64,000 nt of DNA from a virus. The DNA lies in the IMG/VR virus record IMGVR_UViG_3300020056_002227, positions 64,001 through 128,000 of that record. One strand, 5' to 3'. Shown in pieces: positions 8,325 to 52,027 of the stretch; positions within the stretch are counted from its first letter, which is position 1; each line of letters begins with the position of its first letter. Both the position numbers and the translations under genes were made by a program. The notes beneath the pieces were generated by a model. That model was not told the DNA's origin. It did no database searches and saw nothing but the letters and a program-made list of their open reading frames with translations.

Positions 8325-8328
8325 AGAC

Positions 8329-8352
8329 AGAGGGGCTCCGGCCCCTCTTTTC
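8329..8352 (+). terminator. intrinsic terminator at convergent junction
   Basis: AGAGGGGC-TCCG-GCCCCTCT then TTTC; lies between the + strand and - strand operons. Confidence 0.85.
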
Positions 8353-13242: not shown

Positions 13243-13274
13243 TATAAATAAACTCTATACTCATTGTATTTATT
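13243..13274. promoter_or_regulatory. pair of opposed late promoters for the divergent tail operons
   Basis: TATAAATA on + (13243-13250) and AATAAATA on - (13267-13274) in the 75-bp gp4/gp48 intergenic region. Confidence 0.75.
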
Positions 13275-25608: not shown

Positions 25609-27951
25609 ATGTCAAAGGAAGCATATACAGTCGTCTTTGAATCTGGAGTTGATGAAAATCTATTTTTCGATTCGGGCGACGGCCGAGATATTGAGGTCAT
25701 AAGTAGACTATCGTCGATACCCGGTGTTGCTAGTGTTAAGCTTGACGAAGAAGAAAAAACATCTCTTTTAGAAAGTGCAGAAGTAAAAAATCTTGAAAAG
25801 GCAAAAATGCCGGTGAAGTTTTCTACTGCTTTCTATGATGGACCATGGCCATCCACAGTTGTTAATACCGATTTGGTTGGAGGTGCTGATCTTACAGCAC
25901 CCCCAGTAAGTAATGGTAATTCTTATGATTATCAACCTCTCGGCAAGGCTCTTATGTCATCCGTAAACATCACCGCATCTTCAGGTCCAGCTGGATTTCA
26001 TTCCTACCAAGGTGAAGATAATTTAGTCACTGCAAACTGGGAACAAGTACCTGTAGGACGATATGTTGATATCGTTTGTATTGAAGCTGGTGTACCACCA
26101 GACACTTCATATAATAGTAGAGAATACTATTTTGATTTTGCTGAATATGATCCTCGAACATGGAATCTCACATTAACTCCAAATGGCTCATCAAATTGGA
26201 TTGTAAGTGGTACACACAGAGGTGGTACACTTTCCAGTGCCAATAATCCAACACTAATATTTCATCCAGGCGATACAGTTAATTTTACCAATAATGCTAG
26301 TAGTTCTCACCCACTAGAATTGGTAGATGGTTCGGGCAATCAATTGCCCTTGGTAGATAACCAAGGTGCGGCAAATGGCGAGACACTCACATATAAAATT
26401 TCTAAATGGGGCAACGGTGGAATTCAATTCTACTACAGATGTACAATACACACCGGCTCGATGGTCGGAGGTGTAAACCTTAGCTTAGGTGCGAATTCAA
26501 AAATTGTTAAAATGGATTGGAGCAATTATGATTCTGCGATGAATGAACCGGGCAATAACCAGATCTCAAATCCATCAGCTGGATGGCTAGATGAACATGG
26601 TATCGGTGTAATGAGTGCTGCAGCAGGGAGAATAAACAGCTGGGCAATAGGTTCCGATGTTCGAGTAATATACATTCAGGATTATGATACCTTGGTCGCC
26701 TACAATGCAGTATTAGAGTGGCATAAAGCTAAAGCTGTAAATTCAGAAACTGGTAAAAGAAATGCTACAATTTGTACCGGGGCCTGGGGATTTTCGGACG
26801 AATATTATGATAAGGCAGTACCCATTGATAATATTACAACTCTCACTTATTACAGTGATGGTGGTGGAGCTACTACAGTCAATAGACCTGGTGGTGGCTG
26901 GGGAAATGATTATTCAGCATTTGAAGCTGCACACATGGCACCAAAGCAATTCCAAGACCCATTTGACAATGTAAAAAAATGGTGTATCATAGTACCAAAT
27001 TCTACTCAAAATAGTGCTCTTAAGGCAGCCAATGTAGCATTTGACAATGTTACCACTGCCGGCCATAGCCCAATTTATCACTTTCGATCAATAGGTAATG
27101 CTGGCAATGTTTTTGCCAAAGAAGGTACTCCACAGTGGGATAATGAATTTACTGCGAATGGTCGAATTATCAATATTTCTACCTCAGGTTTATCCGTGAG
27201 TGGAGGTAGTAGTTCTTCCGTATCCAATGTAGTATATTATCCACTGCGCGTTGGAGACAATGGTATGGAAGAAGAGATTAGTATCGGAGCATATCAATGC
27301 AGCCAATTAAAGCCTTATGTTGATTTTTATAGCACGAGGGGCCCGATTGTAGATCTATTTGCTCCGGGCAATCATTGGTATGGGCCATATCATAGGTATG
27401 GTAATCCAACTGACCTTTTTAACCAGTCAGGTACTACCAGCATTAATGGTGAACTAATGGGTTATTTCATTGGAACTAGTTGTGCCGCACCAGTTGCTGC
27501 TGGAGCTGGAGCTCTATTTGTTGAAGATTATTACTCTAAGACGAGAAGCTATCCCTCAATAGCAAAGCTGAGAGAAATAATGCAAAATTATGCAGCGCAC
27601 AGATTAGAAAGTATGAATCAGATTGACTGGTCAAACGCGCCTACTGCTACCCAAACAATCATAAGCCCAGCAGGTGAACTAGCTTGGCCCGGGCCGACAG
27701 TAACATATTCAGACCCAGGATCGGCTTTTCAACCTGTACATGCTACGTATCTTGGTTACAATTTAAGCACGGGTGGTTCCATGATTATGCAAGATTTATT
27801 CGGTTCAAAGAATCTTTGTACTTTCTTGCCCAAGGCAATCTTACAAAGTAATGGAAAATTCATTAACTCTAATGGTACTGGAATAAGGCGACCAAAGCCA
27901 GGAAGAACCGGCATGATGTATCCTCGTCGTCGACTTTCAATACAGAAATAA
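25609..27951 (+). CDS. subtilisin-like (S8) serine protease with inserted cupredoxin-like domain
   Basis: HG..V.S.AAG, SIGN oxyanion Asn, VDLFAPG, GTSCAAP.AAG; insert HPL...YYRCTIHTGSM. Confidence 0.8.
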   Translation: MSKEAYTVVFESGVDENLFFDSGDGRDIEVISRLSSIPGVASVKLDEEEKTSLLESAEVKNLEKAKMPVKFSTAFYDGPWPSTVVNTDLVGGADLTAPPVSNGNSYDYQPLGKALMSSVNITASSGPAGFHSYQGEDNLVTANWEQVPVGRYVDIVCIEAGVPPDTSYNSREYYFDFAEYDPRTWNLTLTPNGSSNWIVSGTHRGGTLSSANNPTLIFHPGDTVNFTNNASSSHPLELVDGSGNQLPLVDNQGAANGETLTYKISKWGNGGIQFYYRCTIHTGSMVGGVNLSLGANSKIVKMDWSNYDSAMNEPGNNQISNPSAGWLDEHGIGVMSAAAGRINSWAIGSDVRVIYIQDYDTLVAYNAVLEWHKAKAVNSETGKRNATICTGAWGFSDEYYDKAVPIDNITTLTYYSDGGGATTVNRPGGGWGNDYSAFEAAHMAPKQFQDPFDNVKKWCIIVPNSTQNSALKAANVAFDNVTTAGHSPIYHFRSIGNAGNVFAKEGTPQWDNEFTANGRIINISTSGLSVSGGSSSSVSNVVYYPLRVGDNGMEEEISIGAYQCSQLKPYVDFYSTRGPIVDLFAPGNHWYGPYHRYGNPTDLFNQSGTTSINGELMGYFIGTSCAAPVAAGAGALFVEDYYSKTRSYPSIAKLREIMQNYAAHRLESMNQIDWSNAPTATQTIISPAGELAWPGPTVTYSDPGSAFQPVHATYLGYNLSTGGSMIMQDLFGSKNLCTFLPKAILQSNGKFINSNGTGIRRPKPGRTGMMYPRRRLSIQK

Positions 27952-27953
27952 AA

Positions 27954-27961
27954 TATAAATA
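27954..27961 (+). promoter_or_regulatory. late promoter (TATAAATA)
   Basis: Exact T4 late consensus 30 nt before gp8. Confidence 0.8.
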
Positions 27962-36609: not shown

Positions 36610-39600
36610 ATGTCTAAGATTTCAGAACTCGGGCCGATTACAGGTGCCAATACTAGGTCAGAAGATTTATTTGTTATCGTAAACCTAGTACAGGGCGACG
36701 ACGGTACTAAAAATATTACTCGAAAAGAGCTCGTAGAAGCACTACAGTACGAGATTTTCAGTAGAATCCGAATCACTGGTGAATCGATCACCACTACCTT
36801 CATTTCGAACTCGGATCTTGACAACGTTAGAATCGATAATTCTACGATGGAAGATTCCGATATTTCTCGTAGTGATTTCAATAACGGTACACTCAGAAAT
36901 TCATCTGGTGACAATCTTGTAATCATCAACTCTCAATTCAATGACGGTACTGCTGATAACATCGTTATTACAAATTCCCAATTCAATCAAGGGGATATGG
37001 AAGATGTTGATGGCGATAATGTTCGCTTAATCAATTCGACGATTGATGACAGTGCCATCAGTGATTCAACTGCCAATAACATTAGCATCACAGATTCTAC
37101 ATTTAATAATGGTGCTCTATCTAACAGTACAGCAAATAATTTAGCCATTACCGCATCTACATTCGATAATGGTGAATTAACTAACAGCACTGGTGATAAC
37201 CTAGACATCACAAATTCTAATTTCGAAAATGGTACCATTGCCAATACTCAAATCGAAACCTCGGTATTCCAGAATGGTGTTGTTAGAGATTCAGATCTTA
37301 TTAATGTTGATATTACTGACTCGACATTTGATAATGGTGACCTAACAAATTCATCCGGCGACAATCTGACGATTGTAAATTCTGATTTCTCCGATGGTAC
37401 TGGTAATAATAATGTCTTTACCAATACCACAGTAGATAGAAGTTTAATTACAAATTCTGAAATTGCAAACACATCATTCACAGGTACGATGGATGGTGTA
37501 GTTGCTACTAACATGACCATTACCAGTTCTACTGCTGATGGTTTCAGCCAGAAGAATTCTACATTCGAAGACGGTGGTATTGACCGTTCGACTTTCGAAA
37601 ATGGTGTTATCGACAAATCTAAGCTTGTTGATTTCGATATGGAGATCAACGATGAGTTCGAACCACATATCGACGAGAACAGCTGGTTTGCACTCAAGAA
37701 TGAAAAGACTGGAGAGGTTGAGAGAATTACCTATGCTCAATTCTTCAGCGAGATTTCGAAGACCACTGAATCCGACCTGAAGATTTATGTGGATGCTGCA
37801 AAGGGTGATGATGATAATCCCGGCACGGTACTTCAACCAATCAGAACTCTTGAACGTGCTTCTGAATTGGCAAAAGAAAAGGCTGGTGGTTCTTTCGACC
37901 GAAATGCGATCAACAACGCCATTCATATCACGGTAGGCCCGGGTACATATTACACGAAAGGTAACATTGCATTACCAGATGATTGTGCCATGACCTCTAC
38001 TGCTGGTCAGTATGCTACAGTAATCGAGGCTTTGCCAGGATATGAACAGAACAACGCAATTCTTGTCGGTTCTGGTAACTACGTACAGGGTTTCGCATTC
38101 CAGAATTGGAAGATCGATAACTTCGATTTCCCAGAAGGTGGCTTTGCTTGTGCTTATAGACCCGGTGCTAAACTACTCCGATCTCCATATATCAGAGACA
38201 GCTCCCAGTTGTCTAACTTCCTACGAGAAGACGTAGAACCACCACTCCAGCCGTTCAATACCAAGGGCAATGTACTTGACCTCGGTAGAGAGTTTATTCT
38301 GGAAGTCGGCCATACAGGTGCCTTCTTACAAGACGACGAGATTACATTCTCCAGTGGTGCGAAAGGCTATATCTCATGGGATGATACAAATGATGCAGAT
38401 GCTGGTTTAACCCCAGACCTTGCTACAAACCGAAAAATCTTCGTCCGTAACCTGAAAAATAATAAAGGTTTTGCTGTAGGCGATACGGTTCGTTCTGAAT
38501 CTGGTGGTCTTGGTGTTATTCAAGAAATTGGCATCGATAACTTCCCGAACCCACTTGTCGGTAGAGGTGGTGGATGTATGTTGGCAGATAGAAGAGTCCT
38601 AGACCCCGACTCTCTCTACACATATGTTCTCTGCTTTGGTTTTACCCCTCGTTCTCAAAACGGTATGGGTTATGTAGCAAGAGACGGTGCTGGTGTTAAC
38701 GGAATTGGTTCTCTGTCTATCTTCGTTCGGGTGGCATTCTATGCTCTGAACGGTGGGCAGATGACTCTGAACAACTCTGGTACTCAGTTCGGTGATATCT
38801 CAATGAGAGCAAAAGGTAGTACCAAGATCTTTGCTCCGAAAGACACCACAGCCAATATGCTTGGTAACAGTGCCTTTGCAGATGTAATTACAGATAACGA
38901 AGATTTGATCATACAAGATATGGTCGAATACCTCACAGCAAATACAGCATCTGGTGGTCTTGGTTATACTGGCTACGATGCTGCTAAGTGTGAAAGAGAT
39001 TCTAAAATTATCATTGATGGTCTTGGATATGATATGTCGCTCGACACCAACTACTGGGGTCGACTTGCAGGCATTACATATCGTTCACCCATTTCTAGTA
39101 AGGTTGTTGGTGAACAGCTCGAAGCAACACTTGGAGCTAACAGATATTTGCAAGACAGAATCAATGATGTATTCCAAGGTTCAAACACGGAAATCTTTAC
39201 AAGAGCAAACACCTCTTGGAATGAACTCTACAATGTAGTAGAATACGGTGAAGAGAATATGAATCCAATCATATTCGCTGACACTGGTAATTCTGCTAGA
39301 ACATCTGCAAGAGAAATCATTCAAGACAATAGATCGTTTATCCAAGACGAATTGCTCGACTGGATCGATGACAATGACCAATTCTACGCTTATGATAGCG
39401 TCAAGTGCCGAAGAGACACAACAGAATATATTCTTCCAGCAGTAAAATATGATATGCTACTCGACACCAACTACAACTCGGTGAGAGCAGGTGGTGCATA
39501 TTACATGAAGTCTGCTGAGAAGGTTGTCGGCCAACAAAGAAATGAAACGATTGCAGCATATAAGAGACTGAAAGAACAGACCAATGAGTTGATTGATGCT

Positions 39601-42600
39601 AATTCTTTCATTGGAACAACGCGTGTTGATGAAGGTTTTGATGAGATCATTGCTGCCCTTGATAACCGAGGCACATTATATACACCTACAGATGCGACAT
39701 ATGACCCAGATACTGGTCTCATGGTTGCAACAATCGGTGCTCATACACTCACCGTTGGAAGAAAGATTCTTATCGGTGAAGGTGGAATCACATTTAGTTG
39801 CGGCACAGATGGTAACGTAACTCAAATTTCTCACCCAAGACCAACAGATCCTGCATTCAACAGCCCGTTGGAAATCTTGGCCGTTACAGCAACCACGATT
39901 ACAGTTGACGTTGGAACATCTTTCTATAAAGGTGTACACACATTCGTATCGGCACTAGATAACTCAATCATCGAATTGGGCTCTGAAATTACTTTCTCAG
40001 ACGATGCAGCAATCCCTGCTGACAGACGTAATGCAAGAAAGCAACTGCAGGCTAACAGAGGTTTCTTGCAGGATATGGTTATAGGATATATCGACAATAA
40101 CTATTTCCTATACGACTCTGAAAAGTGTGAGCGTGATATGACTCAATACATTCTACCTGCGGTAGAAAGAGACGTTATCACTGGATCCAATTTCAATGCT
40201 CGTCAAACAGGTATTGCTTACAGAGCCGGCACGATGGGTGCCGAGACAGTGGTCAGACAGCAATTACCAGAGACTGTTGGCGCAATCGAACATCTGAAAG
40301 GTTTAACCACTGCTGGGGTAAATGATCCAGCTGCATCTCACAGAGCAGAAGAATCGTTTAATCAGATTATTGATATTGTTAATAGCAATGGTAAGACATA
40401 TACTCCTACGTCTGGAACAACATATGATCCTGATACTGGTCAAATGATATTAGAGATTGGCTCTCATGATCTGCAAGAAGGTCAATCTATTATCATTGCA
40501 GACGAGAGTGTTACCTTTACCTGTGCCTTAGATTCTAATGTGACACAACATTCTTACCCACAGAAAGGTCATCCTGCATATAGAACTCCTGTAACAATTA
40601 ACAAAGTTACAGCAACCACTATATCCGTCAATGTTGGTGGATATGAGAATGGTACGGTTCACACATTTGTAAGTGCAACTGCTGATTGTATTAAGGCTGG
40701 TTCTTATATCAGTACATATACTCCATCTGATGCTCAATACGATCCAACTAATGGCGTAATGGTTGCAGTTATAGGCAAACACAATTTGGTCAAGGGAGAT
40801 TACATTCAATTCAAACCTTTGAGTATTACGTTTGAATGTAACGGAGATCAGATTACACACCCAAGACCTACTGATCCATTCTATAATAAGCAAATTAAAG
40901 TTGATGCAGTAACAGCAACATCGATCACAATGAATGTTGGTGATGCTGGTGGTTATACGGGTGCCCATACATTTGTAAGTGCAGAAGTTGGTGCGATCGA
41001 AGCAGATCCTATCATTTGGACAGATCCTGCAACATATCTGGATTACTATACACCGACGGATGCTACATATGATCCTAGCACGGGTATCAGTACGGTCACA
41101 TTACCAGGTCATGATATTGAAATTGGTGATTATGTTGAATTTGCTCCTTATAGTTTCACATTTACTTGTGCGGATGATGGCAATGCTACTGAGCATTCTT
41201 ATCCTCGTAAGGGTGACAGTAATTATCGTGAAACAATGGAAGTCACCAACGTCGCTGGAGATGTTATCACGGTTAATGTTGGTGGAACCGGTGGTGGTGG
41301 GTTACACACATTTGTAAGTGCATCAGATGCTGCCGTTGCTAAGACAACTTATAATTCTCAGGGTCAAAGAGCAAGAGAACAATTACAAGCTAACAGAACA
41401 TTCCTCCAAGAAGAGGTAATGGCCTTCCTCGATACGCAATACTTTGTCTTTGATGGCGATAAGTGTTCAAGAGACACAGGATATATTCTTGAAGCTGTCA
41501 GACGTGACGTATCTACTGGGTCGAATTATAATTCGGTCTATGCTGGTCTTGCATATCGTGCAGGAACTACCAGTGGAGATTATGTCATTTCAGACCAACT
41601 TCCACAAACCGTTGCTGCAATAGGTTATCTGAAAGATGAAATTGCAAGCAGAGTAACTGGTTCAGAGTTGACTGCCGCTAATGCAGGATTCGATGAGATT
41701 ATCGATATCTTGAGTAATGGTACAGGAAATGCAGATACCTTGAATTTTGGAACTGCAACTGTTGGTATTACTGGTCAAAACGGCAGATTACATTTACAAG
41801 CAAATAAGACATTCTTGCAAGAAGAAGCAATTGCGTACATTGCACAAGAATTCCCCGGCTTTGTTTATGATCAAGCCAAGTGCAGAAGAGATATTGGTTA
41901 TCTAGTAGATGCAATTTCTTTCGATATTTCTCATGGGTCTAATACCTCTGCAATCAATTTTGCTAGATTGTATTTCGATAAGGGTATTAGTACACTGCCT
42001 GAAAATCAAAAGGCTAAGACCGCAGAGGTTTATGAACACCTTGCAAATGTTGCTTCTAATATTGTACAAGCAATTGGTGTTACACCCACCACAGGCAATG
42101 CACAAAGTCAAGATATTGCAAATGCCGATGCTGGAATTGAAATTGCTAAGAGAACATATGATCTGATGGATCTTACTGCTAAGGTGATCAGAGAGGATAC
42201 TCTTGATTGGTTGCCAACAGCAATTGAACCCGGTTACAACACCGTGGCTCAGATGACAGCATCTAATACAATTGATGGAATTACAGAATCACTTCAGGGT
42301 GGTGTAATTAAGTACCTCAGAGAATTCCACAACGGTCTTCCTTATAATAAAGAAAAGTGCTACAGAGATGTCGGTCTCATTACCGATGCAATTTCTAAGG
42401 ATATCGAATACGGTGGAAATGCATCCACAATCGAAGCTGCAAAATATTACTTCACTGTCGATGAAAGACTTGCATCTTCTTATGAAGAACTCAGAACCAA
42501 GAACGTTCTTTCTATTCCAGTAACAGGTCAGTTCTCTGTGCTGGATGATCTGGCTGCAGTATCTGGTCTTAGAGAGGCTACAAATATTCTGCCTCAAGAA

Positions 42601-45600
42601 CAGCGTATTCCTACCAAGAGAGCGTTCGAACATCTGGCTGCAACCGCGGCCTCTATCGTTCAAGAAGTTGCAGTAACACCTACCACAGGTAATGCTCAAG
42701 TACAGGACGTATCTGGTACAGCCGCAGATGCTGCTACAGGTACAGCAGTGGCAAACCTGTTTAATATTATTTCTGGTGTTGTCGATGATAATGATCTCGA
42801 CAATCTGACCACTACCGAAGTCAAGCCACTTGCTGATCCTAATAGAACAGTTGCTCGTCAGCAGATCCAAATGAACAAAGAGTTCATTATTGATGAGGTT
42901 GTTGCTTATCTCAACGATGAGTTCTTCACCTTTGACGGTGAGAAATGTAAGAGAGATTTGGGCCTGATCATAGATGCAGTAAGACGAGACGTACTGACTG
43001 GTTCTGATTTCAATTCAAACTTTAACGGTCAGGCTTATAGGTCTGGAACTGTAGGTTCGAATTTGGTCATTGATGAACAGCTCACAGAAACCGTTTCTGC
43101 TATCAGATATGCAAAAGACCTTTGCGTGAATTCGATCGTCGATCCTGCTACGGCAACAATTGCTGCAGCAAGATTCGACAAGATTATCGATATCATGGGT
43201 AATGGTACTGCATATTCTAACGTAATTGAATACGGTTTTGATTCTGTCACGGCTGAAAGAATTAATGCAAGATCACAGTTACAGCTCAATAGAGCGTTCA
43301 TCCAGGCAGAAATAACTGCATGGATTGCACTGAATTACGGATCACTCACATATGATGTTGCTAAGTGTGAAAGAGACGTTGGCTATCTGGTAGATTCTGT
43401 GTCTTGGGATATTCAACACGGTGGTAATACAGCTTCGAGAAATAATGCAACACTGTATTTTGAGAATGCTGTAAGCACTCTACCTGAAGATCAACGTGCT
43501 CCTACTGCAGCCGCATTTGTTCACCTTGCTGCAGTTGCTAGATTAATTGCTAATGGTGATCCTGTCACACCTACAACTGGTAATGCCCAGACACAGAATA
43601 CTGCTTCTGGTAACTCCGGTGGACCAATTGCAAGTGTTGTAGAGTCTCTATTCACAATTGTCGCAAATGCAATTCAGCAAAATGGAATCGACGGATTACC
43701 TGCTCTTGAAGAGCCTATTGTAACTGCTTATAATCCAGAATTGCAAGCCGCATATAATTCTATGGGCACAGCAAAGATAACTGCCCAAGACGGCGTATTG
43801 CAACACCTTTCTACTTACTTCAATACTCTTTACTACAATGAAGATAAGTGCAGAAGAGATACCGGCTACATTATCGATGCCGTATCACACGATATTCAAT
43901 ACGGTGGTAATGCTGCTACTGTAAATGCTGCTCACAACTACTTCCAAAATGCTGTAAGTACATTGCCTCTCAATCAGAGAGAACCTACCAGAAAGGCATT
44001 CTTACGCTTGGGTATGGTGATGAATCATATTACCCGCGAGATGGAAGTAACACCGACTGTTGGAAACACACAGACTCAATTCTATAACCATGTTGCTGCA
44101 AATCCTGCAACAGGCATGTTGGTTGAAGATCTGGTTAAGATTGTTGCTAATTCGGTTGATGATGCAACTCCGGCAACTACAGCAATTCCTGCAATTGTTG
44201 AACCTTCTCAGACATGGGTTTCTGGCAATTACACCAGTGCTGTAGATGTGATAGAGAGTTCTTCTAAGACATGGGCAGACGGTGTGATCAGTCACATTAG
44301 TACCACTTACAACGGATTGAGCTTCCCACGAGGTAAGTGCAGAAGAGATGTTGGATATCTTGTTGATGCCGTTTCTCACGATGTTCAATACGGTGGAAAC
44401 TATGCTAGTAGAATTGCGGCAGGAATTTATTTTGAGAATGGAATTTCTGTACTCCCAGCAGACACTAGAGTACAAACCGCTGACATTTATAATTTCCTAG
44501 GTGTTCTATTGGCTGGTGTTGTGCAAGAGACTGATGTTTCTAATACTACACTAACAGATACAGCACAAGATACAAGTGGTACTCCTGCTACTCTAACCGA
44601 AGGTACAAGAGTTGCAGAGTTGATATCGATAGTAGAAACCGTAATTAGAGATGACGATTTAGATGCTCTGCCAATTATGGAAGAGCCAGATACATCTTGG
44701 GTTGCGGCAGATCTCATTGCAACAGCAGAGATGATCGATGACAATACCGAAGAGCTGTCAATTGATCTGGTCGAATTCTTAAGAAGAGAATTTGATGTTC
44801 TGGATTACAACCGAGATAAGTGTCGACGAGACACTGGATATCTACTTGATGCATTTAGCTATGATCTGAACTATGGAGGTAATACTGCATCTCGCTGGAA
44901 TGCTGACTTCTACTTCTGGAATCAGATTTACAGAATCCCAGAAGATCAGAGAGTACCTACTGCTAGATCTTATCAGCAACTCGGTCGAATCTGTAAAGAT
45001 GTTGTCCTTGGTAAATACCCAGGTCAGGTCGTCAAGAGTGGAACTGGAACCGAGGTAGAATCTAAAAAGGTTCAGGACCTTGCAAACATCTTCTACCTGA
45101 CTCAAATAAATAACGATACAACATATCTACCCGTAAAAGAAGAGCCAGATTATAGCTGGATTCCAGATATTGTATCTGATGTGTCATCGATTCTGGAGTT
45201 TAATAAGATTGATCTAGCTTTCGATACAGTAAGATATGTAAATGCGACATATAAATACATTGATATTAATCTCACACGTAGAGATGGTTTGAATTTGTTG
45301 AAGGCCATTGAGCAAGACTTTAAGACGCTCAACCCACAGGGGCCACCTGCTTCAGATGATTACCTAGAGAACGGAGATAGACAAAGAACCAGAGCATATA
45401 CAGCTGCATTGTTTGATTTCAATGGTAATCAGGCATTCCCTGTATTCAATGCTACAACACCTGGTTTGAGGTATCAAAGTTCTGTACAAAGAAGTGCTGG
45501 TGATGCAACTGATGTTGATGGTGCAATCCCTCTGGCAGACCGCAAACCATATTATGCATATATTGTGGCAACAGACTTGAATACAAGTTTCTACGCTGGA

Positions 45601-46098
45601 GATATATACTATTGGGATGGAACACAATGGATATTTGATGGGCCAAACAATACCGATCTACTAGATGCCTTTACTGGTGCTTGGGAGAGAATGAGAGATT
45701 ATCTAGTTACTCTTTCACCAGATGCAGATCACACTGCAATGATTAATGGCTTGATCGATGATTGTTTGATCGATAACGTACTAAGACCAGAAACATTGAC
45801 ATTCGGGTCTCTAGTTGAATCGATTGCTCACCAGTTTAACGGTGCCTCTGCTGGTGTAAACAGAAACGCACTTCCATTGAACTTCCGAAACCTTGGTCTG
45901 CCAATCTCGGCACTGGCCTCGGTTCTCTCAGAAGATGGAGGACGTGTGAGATGGTCTGGTGCTGATGAATTGAATAACCAGTACTTTGCAAGGGGTTTGA
46001 GAATCAACGGTAGAACAGGAAGAATTGAAGGTAGACCATTTACCTCATCGGTAAGAAAACTTGCAAGAAGAGCTTCTAACAGCAGAGCTTCAGTATAA
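36610..46098 (+). CDS. giant virion-cluster protein: beta-solenoid N-terminus, pectin-lyase-like region, 11 phycobiliprotein-like KCxRD domains and 4 beta modules
   Basis: KISEL N-terminal motif; S/N/D-rich 5-residue periodicity; IYVD..KGDD.NPG...P..T; repeated KCxRD domains; late promoter and fibre-gene context. Confidence 0.85.
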   Translation: MSKISELGPITGANTRSEDLFVIVNLVQGDDGTKNITRKELVEALQYEIFSRIRITGESITTTFISNSDLDNVRIDNSTMEDSDISRSDFNNGTLRNSSGDNLVIINSQFNDGTADNIVITNSQFNQGDMEDVDGDNVRLINSTIDDSAISDSTANNISITDSTFNNGALSNSTANNLAITASTFDNGELTNSTGDNLDITNSNFENGTIANTQIETSVFQNGVVRDSDLINVDITDSTFDNGDLTNSSGDNLTIVNSDFSDGTGNNNVFTNTTVDRSLITNSEIANTSFTGTMDGVVATNMTITSSTADGFSQKNSTFEDGGIDRSTFENGVIDKSKLVDFDMEINDEFEPHIDENSWFALKNEKTGEVERITYAQFFSEISKTTESDLKIYVDAAKGDDDNPGTVLQPIRTLERASELAKEKAGGSFDRNAINNAIHITVGPGTYYTKGNIALPDDCAMTSTAGQYATVIEALPGYEQNNAILVGSGNYVQGFAFQNWKIDNFDFPEGGFACAYRPGAKLLRSPYIRDSSQLSNFLREDVEPPLQPFNTKGNVLDLGREFILEVGHTGAFLQDDEITFSSGAKGYISWDDTNDADAGLTPDLATNRKIFVRNLKNNKGFAVGDTVRSESGGLGVIQEIGIDNFPNPLVGRGGGCMLADRRVLDPDSLYTYVLCFGFTPRSQNGMGYVARDGAGVNGIGSLSIFVRVAFYALNGGQMTLNNSGTQFGDISMRAKGSTKIFAPKDTTANMLGNSAFADVITDNEDLIIQDMVEYLTANTASGGLGYTGYDAAKCERDSKIIIDGLGYDMSLDTNYWGRLAGITYRSPISSKVVGEQLEATLGANRYLQDRINDVFQGSNTEIFTRANTSWNELYNVVEYGEENMNPIIFADTGNSARTSAREIIQDNRSFIQDELLDWIDDNDQFYAYDSVKCRRDTTEYILPAVKYDMLLDTNYNSVRAGGAYYMKSAEKVVGQQRNETIAAYKRLKEQTNELIDANSFIGTTRVDEGFDEIIAALDNRGTLYTPTDATYDPDTGLMVATIGAHTLTVGRKILIGEGGITFSCGTDGNVTQISHPRPTDPAFNSPLEILAVTATTITVDVGTSFYKGVHTFVSALDNSIIELGSEITFSDDAAIPADRRNARKQLQANRGFLQDMVIGYIDNNYFLYDSEKCERDMTQYILPAVERDVITGSNFNARQTGIAYRAGTMGAETVVRQQLPETVGAIEHLKGLTTAGVNDPAASHRAEESFNQIIDIVNSNGKTYTPTSGTTYDPDTGQMILEIGSHDLQEGQSIIIADESVTFTCALDSNVTQHSYPQKGHPAYRTPVTINKVTATTISVNVGGYENGTVHTFVSATADCIKAGSYISTYTPSDAQYDPTNGVMVAVIGKHNLVKGDYIQFKPLSITFECNGDQITHPRPTDPFYNKQIKVDAVTATSITMNVGDAGGYTGAHTFVSAEVGAIEADPIIWTDPATYLDYYTPTDATYDPSTGISTVTLPGHDIEIGDYVEFAPYSFTFTCADDGNATEHSYPRKGDSNYRETMEVTNVAGDVITVNVGGTGGGGLHTFVSASDAAVAKTTYNSQGQRAREQLQANRTFLQEEVMAFLDTQYFVFDGDKCSRDTGYILEAVRRDVSTGSNYNSVYAGLAYRAGTTSGDYVISDQLPQTVAAIGYLKDEIASRVTGSELTAANAGFDEIIDILSNGTGNADTLNFGTATVGITGQNGRLHLQANKTFLQEEAIAYIAQEFPGFVYDQAKCRRDIGYLVDAISFDISHGSNTSAINFARLYFDKGISTLPENQKAKTAEVYEHLANVASNIVQAIGVTPTTGNAQSQDIANADAGIEIAKRTYDLMDLTAKVIREDTLDWLPTAIEPGYNTVAQMTASNTIDGITESLQGGVIKYLREFHNGLPYNKEKCYRDVGLITDAISKDIEYGGNASTIEAAKYYFTVDERLASSYEELRTKNVLSIPVTGQFSVLDDLAAVSGLREATNILPQEQRIPTKRAFEHLAATAASIVQEVAVTPTTGNAQVQDVSGTAADAATGTAVANLFNIISGVVDDNDLDNLTTTEVKPLADPNRTVARQQIQMNKEFIIDEVVAYLNDEFFTFDGEKCKRDLGLIIDAVRRDVLTGSDFNSNFNGQAYRSGTVGSNLVIDEQLTETVSAIRYAKDLCVNSIVDPATATIAAARFDKIIDIMGNGTAYSNVIEYGFDSVTAERINARSQLQLNRAFIQAEITAWIALNYGSLTYDVAKCERDVGYLVDSVSWDIQHGGNTASRNNATLYFENAVSTLPEDQRAPTAAAFVHLAAVARLIANGDPVTPTTGNAQTQNTASGNSGGPIASVVESLFTIVANAIQQNGIDGLPALEEPIVTAYNPELQAAYNSMGTAKITAQDGVLQHLSTYFNTLYYNEDKCRRDTGYIIDAVSHDIQYGGNAATVNAAHNYFQNAVSTLPLNQREPTRKAFLRLGMVMNHITREMEVTPTVGNTQTQFYNHVAANPATGMLVEDLVKIVANSVDDATPATTAIPAIVEPSQTWVSGNYTSAVDVIESSSKTWADGVISHISTTYNGLSFPRGKCRRDVGYLVDAVSHDVQYGGNYASRIAAGIYFENGISVLPADTRVQTADIYNFLGVLLAGVVQETDVSNTTLTDTAQDTSGTPATLTEGTRVAELISIVETVIRDDDLDALPIMEEPDTSWVAADLIATAEMIDDNTEELSIDLVEFLRREFDVLDYNRDKCRRDTGYLLDAFSYDLNYGGNTASRWNADFYFWNQIYRIPEDQRVPTARSYQQLGRICKDVVLGKYPGQVVKSGTGTEVESKKVQDLANIFYLTQINNDTTYLPVKEEPDYSWIPDIVSDVSSILEFNKIDLAFDTVRYVNATYKYIDINLTRRDGLNLLKAIEQDFKTLNPQGPPASDDYLENGDRQRTRAYTAALFDFNGNQAFPVFNATTPGLRYQSSVQRSAGDATDVDGAIPLADRKPYYAYIVATDLNTSFYAGDIYYWDGTQWIFDGPNNTDLLDAFTGAWERMRDYLVTLSPDADHTAMINGLIDDCLIDNVLRPETLTFGSLVESIAHQFNGASAGVNRNALPLNFRNLGLPISALASVLSEDGGRVRWSGADELNNQYFARGLRINGRTGRIEGRPFTSSVRKLARRASNSRASV
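38860..45420 (+). repeat. 11 KCxRD helical repeat domains (plus one degenerate)
   Basis: Lys codons of KCxRD at 38986, 39403, 40123, 41461, 41878, 42355, 42943, 43363, 43846, 44335, 44818; degenerate LTRRD near 45270. Confidence 0.9.
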
Positions 46099-46113: not shown

Positions 46114-46584
46114 ATGTCATATACAACTAAAATAGATCCAGTAGACGGTACTACGATTATCGTTACTACCCAGGCTCCGGATGCACTACCAATTGGAAAG
46201 ACCCTGGAGTTGAGTACAGAATGGCAGGTACTTATTGATGTTCCAAAATTTGAAGTTCCTGAGCTTGTATTCGGTGGTTCTACCACTATCGAACCTGGAA
46301 TTGGTGAGGTAATTTCTCCTCTCATTGTTGCAAATAAAACAAGTAATACTGTTGCAATTGATGTGAGAACGCACCGATTCATAGAGCCGGTGCCAGGCCA
46401 AGGAAATGAATTTTATCTTATTAGAAACCTTAGGATACCTGCTTATGATACCATACCAATTCCGCTTAATGGACAGTTTTTTGCTACAGGTGACACATTA
46501 GAGGCCAAGGCCAGTGCAAACTTAGCAATTGACTCAACTATATCATATACCTTAGGACAAGCGGAAGAGTACGATGTCGACTAG
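46114..46584 (+). CDS. hypothetical beta-rich virion protein
   Basis: AAGGA SD; beta-sandwich-like pattern ending GDTL.A.AS; lies between two giant structural genes. Confidence 0.75.
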   Translation: MSYTTKIDPVDGTTIIVTTQAPDALPIGKTLELSTEWQVLIDVPKFEVPELVFGGSTTIEPGIGEVISPLIVANKTSNTVAIDVRTHRFIEPVPGQGNEFYLIRNLRIPAYDTIPIPLNGQFFATGDTLEAKASANLAIDSTISYTLGQAEEYDVD

Positions 46585-49500
46585 ATTTAGATCCATTGGC
46601 TCCAAGACCATTACTCTTGGGCAGGGAATACCACAACAGTTTCCCATTCAATTAGATCCAGCCCCATTTGAGGGTGCCATTGTTTATGCAGATAATGGTA
46701 CAATTAAACTCTCGAATGGTACGGCGTGGGTTGATGTTGGAGCAGGGCCTCAAGGTGTCCAAGGTTTTACAGGTACCCAAGGTGTCCAAGGTATCCAAGG
46801 TGAGTATGGGCCAGGATTTACAATCATCGGTTCGGTACCAGATGTAGACGCAGGTGGTGATCCACAAGCAACTTTAAATGCAGCATTCCCCAGTCCAAAT
46901 ATAGGTGAAGGTGTCATCGATGATACCGACGACGAGCTTTGGATTTGGGATGGTACCAATTGGATTAATATCGGTTCATTCCGTGGTGTTCAAGGTCTTC
47001 AAGGCACTCAGGGTGTTCAAGGTCTTCAAGGCACACTCGGAGAAAAAGGTATTCAAGGTACCCGTGGTTATAGAGGACCACAGGGAACCCAAGGTACTCA
47101 AGGTTTCCAAGGTGTTCAAGGCTTCCAAGGCAATCAGGGCATACAAGGTGTCCAAGGGCCTCAGGCCTCACAGGGTACCCAAGGTATTCAAGGTAATCAA
47201 GGACTTCAGGGTCTTCAAGGTGTTCAAGGACCGCAAGCTTCACAAGGAACTCAAGGCTTCCAAGGCAATCAAGGGATGCAGGGTTTCAACGGTGATGATG
47301 CTGGATCGGTATATGAATATCGACTACTAAATTCTAATATTGAGGCTGACCCAGGTAGTGGTCAGATGATTTGGAATTTACCTAGCAACCCAACCGATAC
47401 TTTCTCCACAACTACAAGAATTTGGATTGACGATGAAGCCTTCTATGGCGTAAACATGGAAGGAATTTATTCGGCAATCGCAGCAGCAGACTCTGTTAAT
47501 AAAGCCTACATGAAGGTAACAAAGCGTGGGCAACCAGATGATTATGTTGTATTTACTATTCAGGCAATTTCTGATAGTACCGGTTACTGGCAATTAGATG
47601 TAACATTTATAGCCGGTAATGCAATCAGAGAGAATTTCGTTGAAGAAACATCACCTGGTGTTTTTACTTCTTATCCTCTACTCGTAGATTTTTCTATCAG
47701 TGGTGATAAGGGAATTCAAGGTGATCAAGGCACCCAAGGTTTCCAAGGACTACAAGGACCTCAAGGTCCACAAGGAATGCAGGGAACACAAGGTGTTCAA
47801 GGTGTCCAAGGCCCACAAGGGCTTACCGGTAATCAAGGTACCGTTGGTGCTTACGGCGGTGTAACATTTAGATACGAGTATAATGCTCTCGATGTAACTA
47901 ATACAGACCCCACACCCGGATTCTTAAAGGGTGATAATGCAATATTAGGTAATGCTACTGAATTATACATTGACGTCACTGATGCTGATGGTGTTACCAT
48001 TAGTGCAATGCTTGCAGATTTCTATGCGTCTTCAAATCCAAATAGTAAGGGCTATTTGAAACTGGCAGATGCATCCAACGTCTATAATTATGCTCTCTTT
48101 GAGGTGACAGGTGGTAACCTTGTAGGTACTGCTGGAACTGGATATCACGCAGTAGCAGTAAATAGTCTTGTTACAGGTCAAACCTATTCTAACGGTACAG
48201 ATTTCCGAATCTCATTTATAAGAACTGGTGATCAAGGCATACAGGGCAATCAAGGTACTCAGGGTATTCAAGGTTTCCAAGGTTCACAGGGTACTCAAGG
48301 CTTCCAAGGATCTCAAGGGACTCAGGGTATCCAAGGTGTTCAAGGACCACAAGGTCTTCAAGGTACTCAAGGTTTCCAAGGAACACAAGGCACACAGGGC
48401 ATTCAAGGATTACAGGGTGTACAAGGTTCCGTTGGTGATTTCGGTGGCCTTACATTTGATTATACATTCGATTCTGCGACCACTGATGCAGATCCTGGTC
48501 AAGGTAATTTAAGGTTTGATAATGCTGCATTTGATTCAGCAACTAAAATGTATATCGATGACCTCGATGATGCAGCTAATGATCTTTCTCCACTCTTCAC
48601 GGAACTTGACATTAATGCAAGTGGTGTAAAAGGCCTGTTTAGAATTATTAATGCAGCCGATGTTACCGAGTTTGCTACATTCAATTATACAGAAATCACA
48701 GATTCTACCGGTTATCATACCTTTGATGTAGCCCACATTGCTGGTGTAACCTCGTTCACAAATGGCGCAGATATTAGAATTACATTTGTTCGAACTGGAG
48801 ACCCAGGCCCTCAGGGTGCTCAAGGTTCTCAAGGACCTCAGGGTACCCAAGGTTTCCAAGGTGTTCAAGGGCTACAAGGTATCCAAGGTACACAGGGCAT
48901 CCAAGGCACACAGGGCATCCAAGGTATGCAAGGTACCGTAGGAGATCACGGTGGACTTTCTTGGAATTATCTCTTTGATTCAAATACAAGTTCTGGATCG
49001 GCCCCAGTTGCAAATAGCTGGAAGATTGATAACTCCAATATAACGCTTGCAACGAAGCTTGTCATCGATGATATTCCAGATGATGCATACAGCAACGAAT
49101 TAGATGACTTCTTTACCTATCTTGGTGCAATACCCGGTTCTCCAAAGGGTCATATTCTTATTGAGAGCACAGCGGATAACGATGGACCTGCAGGTCATCA
49201 CTTTGTTGTCTACGAGTTTACTGCATTTAACTGGGATAGTGCATCTGAATTATACGGTATCTTTGATGTAAACTACATTGCATCAGGAGCTGTAACAAGT
49301 AATAACTGGAATAACGTAGAGTCCGATCACGGCCCAGATACACTGGTTCACTTTATTCCGGCTGGACCACAAGGTACTCAGGGACCACAAGGTACTCAAG
49401 GATTTACTGGTATTCAAGGTGGTGCAGGTGCCTCCGGTGGTGTAACATTCGAATATGAGTTCGATACAGATACTGGCACTTCTCTCTTAGGTGCACCTGG

Positions 49501-52027
49501 ATTATTGAAGTTCAACAATGCTTCTCTATCTTCAGCCACTGAAATGAGAATCAGTGATACTACTCAGAATGGTGCAAACCTTGATACACTTCTGAATAAT
49601 TATATTCTGAACAACCCAGGGCCCATCAAAGGCTTTTATAAGATCATTTCAATTAATGATCCTACGAAATATGTTGTTTATTCTATTACTGGTGGATCAA
49701 GCACTCTCACACAATTTGTAATAAACAGTACATATGTTACAGCCTCTACCGGTGCTGATGCTACATATTTTGGAAACAACCCAGCGCTATTCATTACCTT
49801 CAGTAGAAATGGAGATGACGGGCCACAAGGTGTTCAAGGTTATCAAGGTACTCAGGGCATTCAAGGTATTCAAGGTATTCCCGGCCAAGGCACACAAGGT
49901 TTCCAAGGTACTCAGGGTATTCAAGGTGGCCAAGGTGATCAGGGTGAAGCTGGTGCCTTCGGCGGTGTAACATTTGACTATACATTCAGAACTGATACGA
50001 ATCTAACTTCGGTCGCCCCCGGCGAAATAGAGCTCAACAATGCAGCTGCAAATATTGCCACACAGATGGCAATTCACCACAGGGACGATAACTTTATTGA
50101 TATCAGTCAATATTTAGCTACGATTGATGATTCTACAAGCCCCATTAAAGGACACTTTAGAATCTCAGAAGTAGGCACACCATCTAATTTCGTTCTCTTC
50201 ACAATAAGTTCGATGACCGTTGGTGGTAGCTTCAATACCATAACCTGTTCATATGTTGACGGGTCTCTTGGTTCCGGCACATTTACAGACCAGGCAGATG
50301 TTGTAATTACATTTGCTCGAACAGGTGATCAAGGGCCTCCTGGTGCTCAAGGAGCTCAAGGACCTCAGGGTACCCAAGGTTTCCAAGGTAACCAAGGTAT
50401 TGCTGGAGACGGTAATCAAGGTACTCAGGGACCTCAAGGTTTCCAAGGTACCCAAGGCTTTACTGGTGGCCCAGGTGACGAAGGGCCACAAGGACCACAA
50501 GGCCCTCAAGGATTCCAAGGTATTCAAGGTTTTGAAGGTAGCCAAGGGCCTTCGGGTGCTGGTTCTCAAGGCCCACAGGGAATGCAAGGAATGCAGGGTG
50601 TTCAAGGCTTTGTAGGATCTGGTGGTGATGGTAACCAAGGACCTCAAGGTTTCCAAGGAATGCAGGGAACACAAGGGGTTCAAGGTTTCCAAGGTATTTC
50701 TGGTGGTGATGGACAACCAGGTGGCCCAGGTTCTCAAGGGCCTCAGGGCACCCAAGGTATCCAAGGTACTCAAGGTATCAGTGGTGATGGAGGCGATGGA
50801 TCACAGGGTGCTCAGGGACCACAAGGTTTCCAAGGTATTCAAGGTATTCAAGGTATTACTGCGTCAGGTGGTGTAGGGCCGCAGGGACCACAAGGTACTC
50901 AAGGTGTTCAAGGTATACAAGGATTTGGCCAAGAAGGTGGTCAGGGTACTCAGGGTTTACAAGGACTACAAGGTATACAGGGGCCCCTTGGTACTGCAAG
51001 TACCGGCGCACAAGGTATGCAGGGTACTCAGGGCTGGGAGGGCCCTCAGGGTTCTATAGGGATCGGTGATCCCGGTACACAAGGCCCTCAGGGTATTCAA
51101 GGTATCCAAGGTTCACAAGGTACTACAGGCTCCGGTGCAGATGGTTCTCAAGGCTTCCAAGGGACACAAGGTACCCAAGGCTTTACGGGTGCTCAAGGTA
51201 ATCAAGGTTTTACCGGAGCAGGAGATGTTGGAGCTCAAGGTGCTCAAGGCCCTCAAGGTACTATTGGTCTCACTGGCTCACAGGGTGCTCAAGGATTTGA
51301 AGGCGCAGGTGATGAAGGCGCTCAGGGACCACAAGGTACTCAGGGCATACAAGGTGACTTTGGACCACAAGGTACTACTGGTGCGGGTGCTCAGGGTGCT
51401 ATTGGTTTCCAAGGATTCACTGGTTTCCAAGGTACTCAGGGCTTTACAGGTAGTGCAGGTGCTTCAACATCTATTGATGTACAAGATGTTCATACCTCTG
51501 GTCTTCAAAGTACCGACCTACTCGTAACCTTTGTTCAAGGCGGAACCGGTAATAGACCTTTGTATGCTACACTGACACCCAACCCAGCACCAAGTGCCGG
51601 TGCTCAGAATTTCCTATACAGAGCTGACCAAGATAAACTATCAGTAGAGAATATCTTTGTTGGAGGCACAATTACTCAAGATACTGGTGCTTCATGGACT
51701 GCTTCAGATGGTACTTTAAATATAACCGGAAGTCTTGAAGCTTCAAATGATTTGATTACAGCTTCTGATGCAAGATATAAAGAAAATGTTATTGATATCG
51801 AAAATGCCCTAAGCAAGGTCTTGGCAATGAGAGGTGTCAATTATAACATGATAGGTGATGATACACAGAAAATTGGTTTGATCGCACAAGAAGTGCAAGA
51901 GGTCATACCAGAAGTTGTATCTAATAATAATGATAGACTTGGGGTTTCATACGGTAATATAGTCGCACTATTGATCGAAGCCATTAAGGAGCAACAGGCA
52001 CAGCTTGACGATTTGAGAGGTAAGTAA
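46574..52027 (+). CDS. collagen-like (Gly-X-Gln) fibre with six globular beads and C-terminal S74 chaperone
   Basis: Long GxQ triplet runs; repeated GG.TF.Y.F...TF.RTGD domains; SDARYKEN...GLIAQEV...LLIEAIKEQ. Confidence 0.9.
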   Translation: MSTRFRSIGSKTITLGQGIPQQFPIQLDPAPFEGAIVYADNGTIKLSNGTAWVDVGAGPQGVQGFTGTQGVQGIQGEYGPGFTIIGSVPDVDAGGDPQATLNAAFPSPNIGEGVIDDTDDELWIWDGTNWINIGSFRGVQGLQGTQGVQGLQGTLGEKGIQGTRGYRGPQGTQGTQGFQGVQGFQGNQGIQGVQGPQASQGTQGIQGNQGLQGLQGVQGPQASQGTQGFQGNQGMQGFNGDDAGSVYEYRLLNSNIEADPGSGQMIWNLPSNPTDTFSTTTRIWIDDEAFYGVNMEGIYSAIAAADSVNKAYMKVTKRGQPDDYVVFTIQAISDSTGYWQLDVTFIAGNAIRENFVEETSPGVFTSYPLLVDFSISGDKGIQGDQGTQGFQGLQGPQGPQGMQGTQGVQGVQGPQGLTGNQGTVGAYGGVTFRYEYNALDVTNTDPTPGFLKGDNAILGNATELYIDVTDADGVTISAMLADFYASSNPNSKGYLKLADASNVYNYALFEVTGGNLVGTAGTGYHAVAVNSLVTGQTYSNGTDFRISFIRTGDQGIQGNQGTQGIQGFQGSQGTQGFQGSQGTQGIQGVQGPQGLQGTQGFQGTQGTQGIQGLQGVQGSVGDFGGLTFDYTFDSATTDADPGQGNLRFDNAAFDSATKMYIDDLDDAANDLSPLFTELDINASGVKGLFRIINAADVTEFATFNYTEITDSTGYHTFDVAHIAGVTSFTNGADIRITFVRTGDPGPQGAQGSQGPQGTQGFQGVQGLQGIQGTQGIQGTQGIQGMQGTVGDHGGLSWNYLFDSNTSSGSAPVANSWKIDNSNITLATKLVIDDIPDDAYSNELDDFFTYLGAIPGSPKGHILIESTADNDGPAGHHFVVYEFTAFNWDSASELYGIFDVNYIASGAVTSNNWNNVESDHGPDTLVHFIPAGPQGTQGPQGTQGFTGIQGGAGASGGVTFEYEFDTDTGTSLLGAPGLLKFNNASLSSATEMRISDTTQNGANLDTLLNNYILNNPGPIKGFYKIISINDPTKYVVYSITGGSSTLTQFVINSTYVTASTGADATYFGNNPALFITFSRNGDDGPQGVQGYQGTQGIQGIQGIPGQGTQGFQGTQGIQGGQGDQGEAGAFGGVTFDYTFRTDTNLTSVAPGEIELNNAAANIATQMAIHHRDDNFIDISQYLATIDDSTSPIKGHFRISEVGTPSNFVLFTISSMTVGGSFNTITCSYVDGSLGSGTFTDQADVVITFARTGDQGPPGAQGAQGPQGTQGFQGNQGIAGDGNQGTQGPQGFQGTQGFTGGPGDEGPQGPQGPQGFQGIQGFEGSQGPSGAGSQGPQGMQGMQGVQGFVGSGGDGNQGPQGFQGMQGTQGVQGFQGISGGDGQPGGPGSQGPQGTQGIQGTQGISGDGGDGSQGAQGPQGFQGIQGIQGITASGGVGPQGPQGTQGVQGIQGFGQEGGQGTQGLQGLQGIQGPLGTASTGAQGMQGTQGWEGPQGSIGIGDPGTQGPQGIQGIQGSQGTTGSGADGSQGFQGTQGTQGFTGAQGNQGFTGAGDVGAQGAQGPQGTIGLTGSQGAQGFEGAGDEGAQGPQGTQGIQGDFGPQGTTGAGAQGAIGFQGFTGFQGTQGFTGSAGASTSIDVQDVHTSGLQSTDLLVTFVQGGTGNRPLYATLTPNPAPSAGAQNFLYRADQDKLSVENIFVGGTITQDTGASWTASDGTLNITGSLEASNDLITASDARYKENVIDIENALSKVLAMRGVNYNMIGDDTQKIGLIAQEVQEVIPEVVSNNNDRLGVSYGNIVALLIEAIKEQQAQLDDLRGK
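46745..51460 (+). repeat. 9-bp periodic collagen-coding repeats (CAAGGT/CAGGGT)
   Basis: Numerous imperfect GGNNNNCAR units in blocks separated by non-repetitive domains. Confidence 0.9.

Follow-up and report, generated by a model that had tools for sequence, protein, structure and literature searches.

Tandem phycobiliprotein-like globin domains in a giant baseplate/tail-fibre-type phage protein, a candidate pigment-carrying part of the virion

In a stretch of 64,000 nucleotides (nt) of viral DNA, bases 64001–128000 of the IMG/VR record IMGVR_UViG_3300020056_002227 (hereafter the window), we studied an open reading frame (ORF) for a giant protein of 3162 amino acids (aa) that contains eleven phycobiliprotein-like domains. 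The phage record to which the window belongs is 169.7 kb long and 77% complete. We consider it nearly certain that the repeats have a globin-like fold and are homologous to phycobiliproteins. Together with their homologues they make up a genuine, widely distributed new branch of the superfamily of bilin-binding globins, built as tandem modules into phage baseplate and fibre proteins. Phycobiliprotein-type globins are antenna proteins of cyanobacteria and algae, joined since 2023 by the BBAG globins of some heterotrophs. Full-text literature searches found no phycobiliprotein-like or bilin-binding globin domain described in phage or virion proteins, and none of the public annotations of homologues that we examined ('virion structural protein', 'tail fiber protein') refers to such a domain. 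We read the repeats as divergent but true phycobiliprotein homologues that lack the X-Y hairpin, form a string of beads within a fibre attached to the baseplate of a T4-like marine phage, and bind bilin. Taken as a whole this reading has, in our judgement, an even chance of being right, and we see in the giant fibre a strong candidate, as yet unproven, for a part of the virion that carries pigment.

The repeat array and its kinship with phycobiliproteins

An earlier note on this DNA, made from the sequence alone, had described eleven repeats with K-C-x-R-D in the 3162-aa ORF, and both the motif count and shuffling confirm them. The exact motif occurs 11 times, with its Cys at aa 794, 933, 1173, 1619, 1758, 1917, 2113, 2253, 2414, 2577 and 2738, whereas 20,000 shuffled versions of the protein contain a mean of 0.0026 and a maximum of 1; it accounts for 11 of the protein's 23 Cys. 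Successive motif Cys are 139, 240, 446, 139, 159, 196, 140, 161, 163 and 161 aa apart, so that adjacent copies do mostly lie at the 139–163 aa that had been claimed, and the larger gaps coincide with intervening beta-rich repeats or an insert. Pairwise identity among the eleven repeats is 17–44%. When the entire record is searched with the profile, the eleven domains all fall within this ORF (window 38845–45156) and none lies elsewhere. In window coordinates the protein is laid out as follows:

36610–46098, + strand: giant ORF P0001, 3162 aa, a baseplate/tail-fibre-type virion protein by its PHROG families
36790–37630, + strand: pentapeptide-repeat (beta-helix) N-terminal region (Pfam PF13599 Pentapeptide_4, E 8e-13, 48.7 bits, cut-off 38)
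38845–39270, + strand: phycobiliprotein-like domain 1, Cys794, by motif, alignment and profile match (AF2 model with pLDDT 71)
39283–39699, + strand: phycobiliprotein-like domain 2, Cys933, by motif and profile match; aa 900–1017 are the protein's best PF00502 stretch (profile positions 42–155)
39988–40413, + strand: phycobiliprotein-like domain 3, Cys1173, by motif and profile match
40414–41343, + strand: beta-rich repeat block interrupting the globin array, from the translation, with phrog_1276 and phrog_18802 matches at aa 1242–1465
41344–41742, + strand: phycobiliprotein-like domain 4, Cys1619, by motif and profile match; matches PF00502 on its own (E 0.015)
41752–42240, + strand: phycobiliprotein-like domain 5, Cys1758, by motif and profile match
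42238–42816, + strand: phycobiliprotein-like domain 6, Cys1917, by two profile matches (42238–42456 and 42571–42816) with an alignment gap
42829–43227, + strand: phycobiliprotein-like domain 7, Cys2113, by motif and profile match
43225–43713, + strand: phycobiliprotein-like domain 8, Cys2253, by motif and profile match
43708–44196, + strand: phycobiliprotein-like domain 9, Cys2414, with a high-confidence AF2 model (pLDDT 92.3, pTM 0.88)
44191–44691, + strand: phycobiliprotein-like domain 10, Cys2577, by motif and profile match
44680–45156, + strand: phycobiliprotein-like domain 11, Cys2738, by motif and profile match
45157–46098, + strand: C-terminal region of about 310 aa without a Pfam match, which could be a distal or receptor-binding end

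The split profile match of domain 6 reflects an insert of about 38 aa (window 42457–42570) between the Cys helix and the next helix. A second family of modules, beta-rich and about 95–110 aa long, is interleaved with the globin domains at 39700–39987, between domains 2 and 3, and at 40414–41343. Its pattern is TYTPTDATYDP...FxC...HPRPTDP...VTATTITVNVG...HTFVSA, and a single Cys is conserved in every module, as are His residues.

The relationship to phycobiliproteins can be seen by comparing profiles. Aligned with hhalign to a template made from seven plasmid-borne cyanobacterial genes for CpcA, CpcB and allophycocyanin, the phage family gives Prob 91.6% and E 8e-7 over 94 columns, and the window's own 11 repeats by themselves give Prob 82%. 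The ungapped register puts the phage Cys, Arg, Asp, Gly and Gly-Gly on Cys84, Arg86, Asp87, Gly89 and Gly102-103 of the phycobiliproteins; conserved Tyr residues of the phage family are aligned with Tyr74 and with the Tyr117 column, and a conserved Pro with Pro64. When the repeat profile is searched against PDB sequences it finds C-phycocyanin alpha chains, with weak E-values and with KCxRD over KC(V/A)RD. The Pfam family PF00502 is matched by 28 of 147 family domains scanned singly, weakly or below threshold (best 6e-5), where any other family is matched by at most two, and single repeats of the giant protein reach E 0.015 at best. Two finer points of the earlier note stand: the Gly-Gly 18–19 residues past the Cys is found in repeats 6 and 8–11, and the phycocyanin-alpha sequence given there agrees with retrieved CpcA sequences (KCVRDIGYYLRM.TYC..VGG). 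A third, that the repeats end like the C-terminus of allophycocyanin beta, is unsupported, since the profile alignment ends at about phycobiliprotein residue 143. Two domain copies also match Pfam YvfG (PF09628), at 1.3e-5 at best, and the repeat profile weakly matches B. subtilis YvfG (PDB 2gsv) in the region past the Cys helix; we set aside these matches and those to coronavirus S2, all of them weak, as probable helical noise.

Predicted structures lead to the same family. The AF2 model of domain 9, built with 147 diverse copies as the alignment, has six helices with a pLDDT of 92.3 and a pTM of 0.88, and Foldseek ranks phycoerythrin, phycocyanin and cryptophyte biliprotein chains first for it, followed by haemoglobins and myoglobins. 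For domain 1, modelled from the 11 repeats at a pLDDT of 71, nearly all of the Foldseek matches in the PDB are phycobiliproteins. In an exhaustive VIA-align comparison of the domain 9 model with 48,161 chains, ranks 1–8 are phycobiliproteins or the bilin-binding domain of ApcE (Z 14.8–11.6, rmsd 2.2–2.8, 118–139 residues), with phycoerythrin at the top score of 14.8; below rank 8 come a globin-coupled sensor (Z 10.8), photocobilins (10.7) and then RsbR-type non-heme globins. The best match of this model in the ESM Atlas is a C-phycoerythrin beta cluster (TM 0.77); a feature-based search of the Atlas gave no usable match. A Foldseek check of modelled repeats, as the earlier note had proposed, thus bears out its idea of the fold: for two models and across three structure libraries it is globin-like, with phycobiliproteins nearest. 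Because hhalign, the Pfam matches, the PDB profile search and the structure searches agree both on the family and on the register, we regard homology with bilin-binding globins as well supported.

A structural difference lies at the N-terminus. Phycobiliproteins build their alpha-beta monomers with an X-Y hairpin, which is absent from the phage domains: structural alignments begin at about residue 29–47 of the phycobiliprotein, the hhalign alignment starts from template column 36, and a repeat period of 139–163 aa leaves no space for the hairpin. What the phage domains share with phycobiliproteins and the ApcE domain is the globin core, the CxRD of the Cys84 site, the ungapped spacing to G89 and GG102-103 and the Tyr74 and Tyr117 columns, while they differ in being fused head to tail, 2–36 per chain, instead of assembling as alpha-beta trimers, and in sitting in baseplate or tail-fibre proteins.

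What argues for bilin binding, indirectly, is the conservation of the site. Among 1650 copies from 151 representative giant proteins, the motif Asp is kept in 99%, the Arg in 96% and the Cys in 95%, as are an Asp at Cys+14 (99%) and a Tyr at Cys+30 (99%), although column identity averages only some 18% in the alignment of 147 copies (33% when the repeats of the window are taken by themselves). CXRD is a chromophore motif, in which the Cys is linked to ring A and the Arg and Asp form hydrogen bonds to the bilin (Rockwell et al. 2023, PMC10151467). Our main argument is this conservation taken together with the known role of the motif. The same study reports that the CXRD-bearing BBAG-1 and BBAG-3 globins of heterotrophs attach bilins without lyases, and that the self-attached bilin is weakly fluorescent (PMC10151467). 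The BBAGs are among the closest known systems. Like the phage domains they are phycobiliprotein-paralogous globins outside light harvesting, and those of the BBAG-1/-3 type have the CXRD found in all 11 phage repeats. Genomes with BBAGs encode heme oxygenase and a PcyA-type reductase (PMC10151467). Unlike the phage domains, which form tandem arrays in giant virion proteins, BBAGs are cellular proteins of one domain each, encoded in small gene clusters. Photoglobins or photocobilins (globin-B12 proteins with biliverdin; PDB 8j2w and 8j2y, Z 10.7 and 10.2) also belong to the globin superfamily and have a light-related tetrapyrrole ligand, but they are less similar to the phage domains than phycobiliproteins are, lack CXRD (PMC10151467), are fused to B12-binding domains and are not repeated.

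Virion placement and the bilin genes of the phage

The earlier note had placed the giant ORF in a virion gene cluster, which both its neighbours and its PHROG matches support. The protein itself matches tail-fibre and virion-structural families (phrog_5342, 1e-106; phrog_701, 8e-97; phrog_4527, 2e-72). Upstream of it lie baseplate wedge genes (gp6/7/8-like), a gp9-type fibre connector and tail-fibre PHROG matches, and downstream a collagen-like tail fibre of 1817 aa (46574–52027) with many PHROG fibre matches. Homologous domains are found in corresponding proteins of T4-like cyanophages: in P-SSM4 within the 7312-aa gp7 baseplate protein PSSM4_080, between gp6 and gp9, and in S-PM2 in the 3340-aa 'tail fiber protein' p091 (S-PM2p091) and in a second ORF of 3792 aa. 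These gp7-like wedge or tail-fibre giants carry the same domain family, whereas the present array occupies a separate 3162-aa gene downstream of the gp6–gp9 block and has a pentapeptide-repeat N-terminus. From sequence comparisons we judge it very probable that the giant protein is part of the virion, in the baseplate or a tail fibre. Two nearby ORFs can be mentioned here. A 156-aa ORF directly after the giant one (46114–46584) matches no family; the baseplate block contains a 780-aa protein (25609–27951) with a tail-fibre PHROG match and a weak protease match (phrog_3677).

The T4-type late-promoter motif TATAAATA occurs on the + strand of the window at 13243, 27954 and 54355, in each case 23–46 nt ahead of an ORF start, and at least one of these three ORFs is a baseplate gene. 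The copy at 27954 is the nearest one upstream of the giant ORF on this strand, and the giant ORF may therefore be co-transcribed from it. This motif and the bilin genes of the phage, which lie elsewhere in the record, are:

window 27954–27961, + strand: T4-type late-promoter motif TATAAATA, preceding a gp8-like gene
record 8092–9276, − strand: ALA synthase, outside the window
record 37908–38459 and 38763–39149, − strand: the adjacent pair of heme oxygenase and PcyA/X-like reductase, outside the window

That no bilin genes lie within the window, as the earlier note had stated, is true, yet the same genome holds them outside it: a heme oxygenase gene (hemO), an adjacent gene for a PcyA/X-like ferredoxin-dependent bilin reductase, and an ALA synthase gene whose product scores 566 bits, well above the family cut-off. 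By these matches the phage encodes a predicted route from glycine to bilin, through ALA synthase, heme oxygenase and the PcyX-like reductase. The hemO–reductase cassette is about 65–69 kb from the globin array and thus forms a separate cluster in the same genome. A copy of TATAAATA at record 39234–39241 (− strand) precedes the hemO ORF by about 25 nt and is followed by a GC-rich leader. Since the same motif stands ahead of structural genes, its position ahead of hemO suggests that the bilin cassette is transcribed late and co-expressed with the virion genes.

Neither psbA nor psbD was found in the 77%-complete record, and in the absence of psbA a heterotrophic host that does not itself produce phycobilin is possible. 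With such a host the pathway of the phage may be the sole source of pigment. The phage reductase is nearest to that of Pelagibacter phage Mosig (35.5%, compared with about 28% for cyanophage PcyA). The gp23 major capsid protein stands about equally near to those of phages of OM43 and Sinorhizobium (Melnitz and phiM12; 66–67%) and to those of Synechococcus phages (64%). Known phage bilin genes are ho1/hemO, pebS, pcyA, pcyX, cpeT and vAlaS, and the present phage has the combination of vAlaS, hemO and pcyA/X that is known from uncultured aquatic phages (PMC11480375), which have been placed near pelagimyophages (PMC11480375). The literature describes what these genes do for phages as unknown (PMC3037559, PMC11480375), and phytochromes or BBAGs have been raised only as possible acceptors (PMC11480375). 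These earlier studies name no phage-encoded acceptor (PMC3037559, PMC11480375); the present array is a candidate for one.

Distribution of the domain

Searched against 1.84 billion representative proteins, the profile found the domain in 1422 of them at E ≤0.001, with up to 36 copies per protein in the best 150 of these 1422, and among phage records it occurs in 185 of 50,697 (E ≤0.01). A megablast search against phages gave no match. Among named phages the domain is, at the level of BLAST, confined to Synechococcus and Prochlorococcus phages and one single-cell-associated marine virus; it was not found in HTVC008M or Melnitz. It is present in 14 of 17 classic cyanomyovirus isolates, with 2–12 profile matches per genome; carriers in culture include S-PM2, P-HM2 and Syn9.

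We considered the possibility that the domain is confined to cyanophages altogether, and dropped it on account of the present phage, of a 335-kb contig (G001:C57) and of eleven long IMG/VR contigs, all without psbA; the gp23 of the present phage is as near to those of Melnitz and phiM12 as to those of Synechococcus phages. The 335-kb contig has three domain-bearing ORFs and a bilin reductase. It and the IMG/VR contig G021 are two further psbA-less phage contigs that combine a reductase with the domain, and in G021 the two are about 69 kb apart, much as in the present phage. Among the 11 domain-bearing IMG/VR contigs, which are fragments (23–64% complete), psbA is found in none and a reductase in one. 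Conversely, the domain is found in none of 11 pcyX-bearing IMG/VR contigs, which are also fragments (11–42% complete). A set of 80 IMG/VR loci was based on gp23; two of these come from contigs longer than 100 kb and the majority from contigs shorter than 20 kb.

Domain copies also appear in two assemblies labelled as cellular, the Rhodobacteraceae bin Water_Bin34 and the Neomarinimicrobiota metagenome-assembled genome RS350. We read both as mis-binned phage DNA, because both assemblies contain a T4-type gp23, which in the Neomarinimicrobiota assembly is on the domain-bearing contig C57 itself. RS350 has one unique gp23 copy, on two contigs, and Water_Bin34 has nine gp23 matches; both hold contigs with giant domain-bearing ORFs.

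An apparent association between the domain and CpeT was rejected as evidence. CpeT is present in 12 of the 14 cyanomyovirus isolates with the domain and in none of the three without it (17 isolates, Fisher p 0.015). These three, P-SSM2 (NC_006883), S-SSM7 (NC_015287) and S-SM2 (NC_015279), form a single clade in the gp23 tree (SH-aLRT 99), so that the association counts as one independent contrast. In this tree wrong-frame ORFs were used for the window phage, Syn9 and Syn19, which gives these three long branches and leaves the clade of P-SSM2, S-SSM7 and S-SM2 unaffected.

Pigment carrier or scaffold

The chances that the phage domains would bind bilin appear to us to be evenly balanced. If they do, each domain would take up a bilin, thioether-linked to its motif Cys, and attachment may be lyase-free, as reported for the CXRD-bearing BBAG globins. 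Loading would fall late in infection, when the hemO–reductase cassette and the virion genes would be expressed together, and the released virion would carry the pigment array. The most likely use, on which we can only speculate, would be light sensing as a gate on adsorption, or protection of the fibre against light.

Several observations weigh against this reading. The whole protein scores 20.2 bits against PF00502, below the Pfam gathering threshold of 22.2 for formal membership. The phage family has invariant residues of its own, Asp(Cys+14), Tyr(Cys+30) and Thr(Cys+46), that are absent from phycobiliproteins, and the Arg93 that is invariant in phycobiliproteins is replaced by Asp; the chromophore site may therefore have been retooled for another purpose. 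Phycobiliproteins normally require lyases, and neither CpeT nor CpeS was found in the 77%-complete record. No coloured phage preparations are reported in the literature that we searched, although by our estimate some 100 bilins on each virion would yield an absorbance of just 0.01–0.02 or so at 1e12 particles per ml, a colour that is easily overlooked. The domain and the bilin genes also occur apart from each other: reductases are present in 7 of the 17 cyanomyovirus isolates, including P-SSM2 and S-SSM7, two of the three domain-free phages, Pelagibacter phage Mosig has hemO and pcyX without the domain, and many cyanophages have the domain without a phage reductase, in which case the host could supply the bilin. 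The co-occurrence of repeat family and bilin genes that the earlier note had suggested thus holds in this genome, with its hemO, PcyX-like reductase and ALA synthase, and fails in general, each being found without the other. Phage bilin genes do not serve the globin domain only, and the domain needs no phage bilin genes where the host supplies bilin.

The alternative that survives best is a scaffold without pigment, which we consider possible though rather unlikely. A captured phycobiliprotein-type globin would here serve as a rigid helical bead for long fibres, and the Cys, Arg, Asp, Asp(+14) and Tyr(+30) would make up a polar network in the interior, or else a contact between domains or between chains such as a disulfide, and so stabilise the string of beads. 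Unrelated folds are commonly reused as repeated spacers in the fibre and decoration proteins of phages, and the free variation in domain number, from 2 to 36 per protein, fits a module that sets length. The scaffold is also favoured by the invariant Asp(+14), Tyr(+30) and Thr(+46), which are not chromophore residues of phycobiliproteins, by the replacement of Arg93, by the phages with bilin genes and no domain and vice versa, and by the lack of a lyase in the present incomplete record. However, we know of no structural role for the motif Cys, Arg and Asp in phycobiliproteins or BBAGs, and in the RsbR globins, where the ligand has been lost, the ligand residues have been lost too. The three residues that the phage domains keep at 95–99%, despite an overall identity of about 20%, are those by which phycobiliproteins and BBAGs bind their chromophore (PMC10151467). 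A mere scaffold would in addition leave unexplained the presence, in a psbA-less phage, of a complete bilin pathway preceded by a late-promoter motif.

A ligand other than a reduced phycobilin seems to us quite improbable. The domains could hold biliverdin or heme non-covalently, or a molecule of the host surface, and serve, independently of light, in receptor binding or sensing. This would be in line with the structural matches that follow the phycobiliproteins, i.e., heme globin sensors (Z 10.8), the biliverdin/B12 photocobilins (10.7) and non-heme RsbR, with the B12-binding globin fusions among the Atlas matches, and with the biliverdin specificity of BBAG-2 globins (PMC10151467). However, those biliverdin-specific BBAG-2 globins lack CXRD, as do the photoglobins (PMC10151467), a proximal heme His is not among the conserved columns of the phage family, and a reductase acting beyond biliverdin is encoded beside hemO. 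Convergence or a modelling artefact, with the repeats being unrelated helical bundles, is very improbable: the Foldseek E-values are weak (0.04–0.3), middling Z-scores arise by chance for helical folds and the Pfam score is below threshold, but four independent lines (structure searches, Pfam with 28 of 147 domains, the PDB profile and hhalign at 91.6%) give the same family and register.

If the domains do bind bilin, one possible use concerns the light dependence of phage adsorption. The cyanophages P-HM1 and P-HM2 fail to adsorb without light, whereas P-SSM2 and the podovirus P-SSP7 adsorb in darkness as well (Liu et al. 2019, PMC6628666), and adsorption of S-PM2 requires light but not host photosynthesis (PMC6628666). 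As the cause, Liu et al. propose light-sensitive receptors or tail fibres (PMC6628666). In our profile search the domain is present in P-HM1, P-HM2 and S-PM2 and absent from P-SSM2 and P-SSP7, so its presence is concordant with light-dependent adsorption, in a comparison that amounts to 2–3 independent contrasts only. We therefore put forward, as a tentative idea that is less likely to be right than wrong by some way, that a covalent bilin array on a baseplate fibre is the phage's own photoreceptor and gates adsorption to daylight. Light absorption by the bilin would alter the fibre and so restrict adsorption to daylight, and hemO, pcyX or pebS, ALA synthase and perhaps CpeT would at least partly serve to load the array. 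If true, such a photoreceptor array would explain why phages synthesize phycobilins, including those of non-photosynthetic hosts, and how adsorption can depend on light independently of host photosynthesis.

What can be said irrespective of the pigment is that an antenna fold with an intact chromophore triad is a widespread and seemingly unnamed building block of phage baseplate and fibre proteins. Even if no bilin is bound, this is a photosynthetic-antenna fold that has been recruited as a structural module. If bilin is bound, the pebS, pcyA, pcyX and hemO genes of phages would have an acceptor encoded by the phage itself, there would be a candidate phage-side sensor for light-dependent adsorption, and no pigmented phage particles would have been known before these virions.

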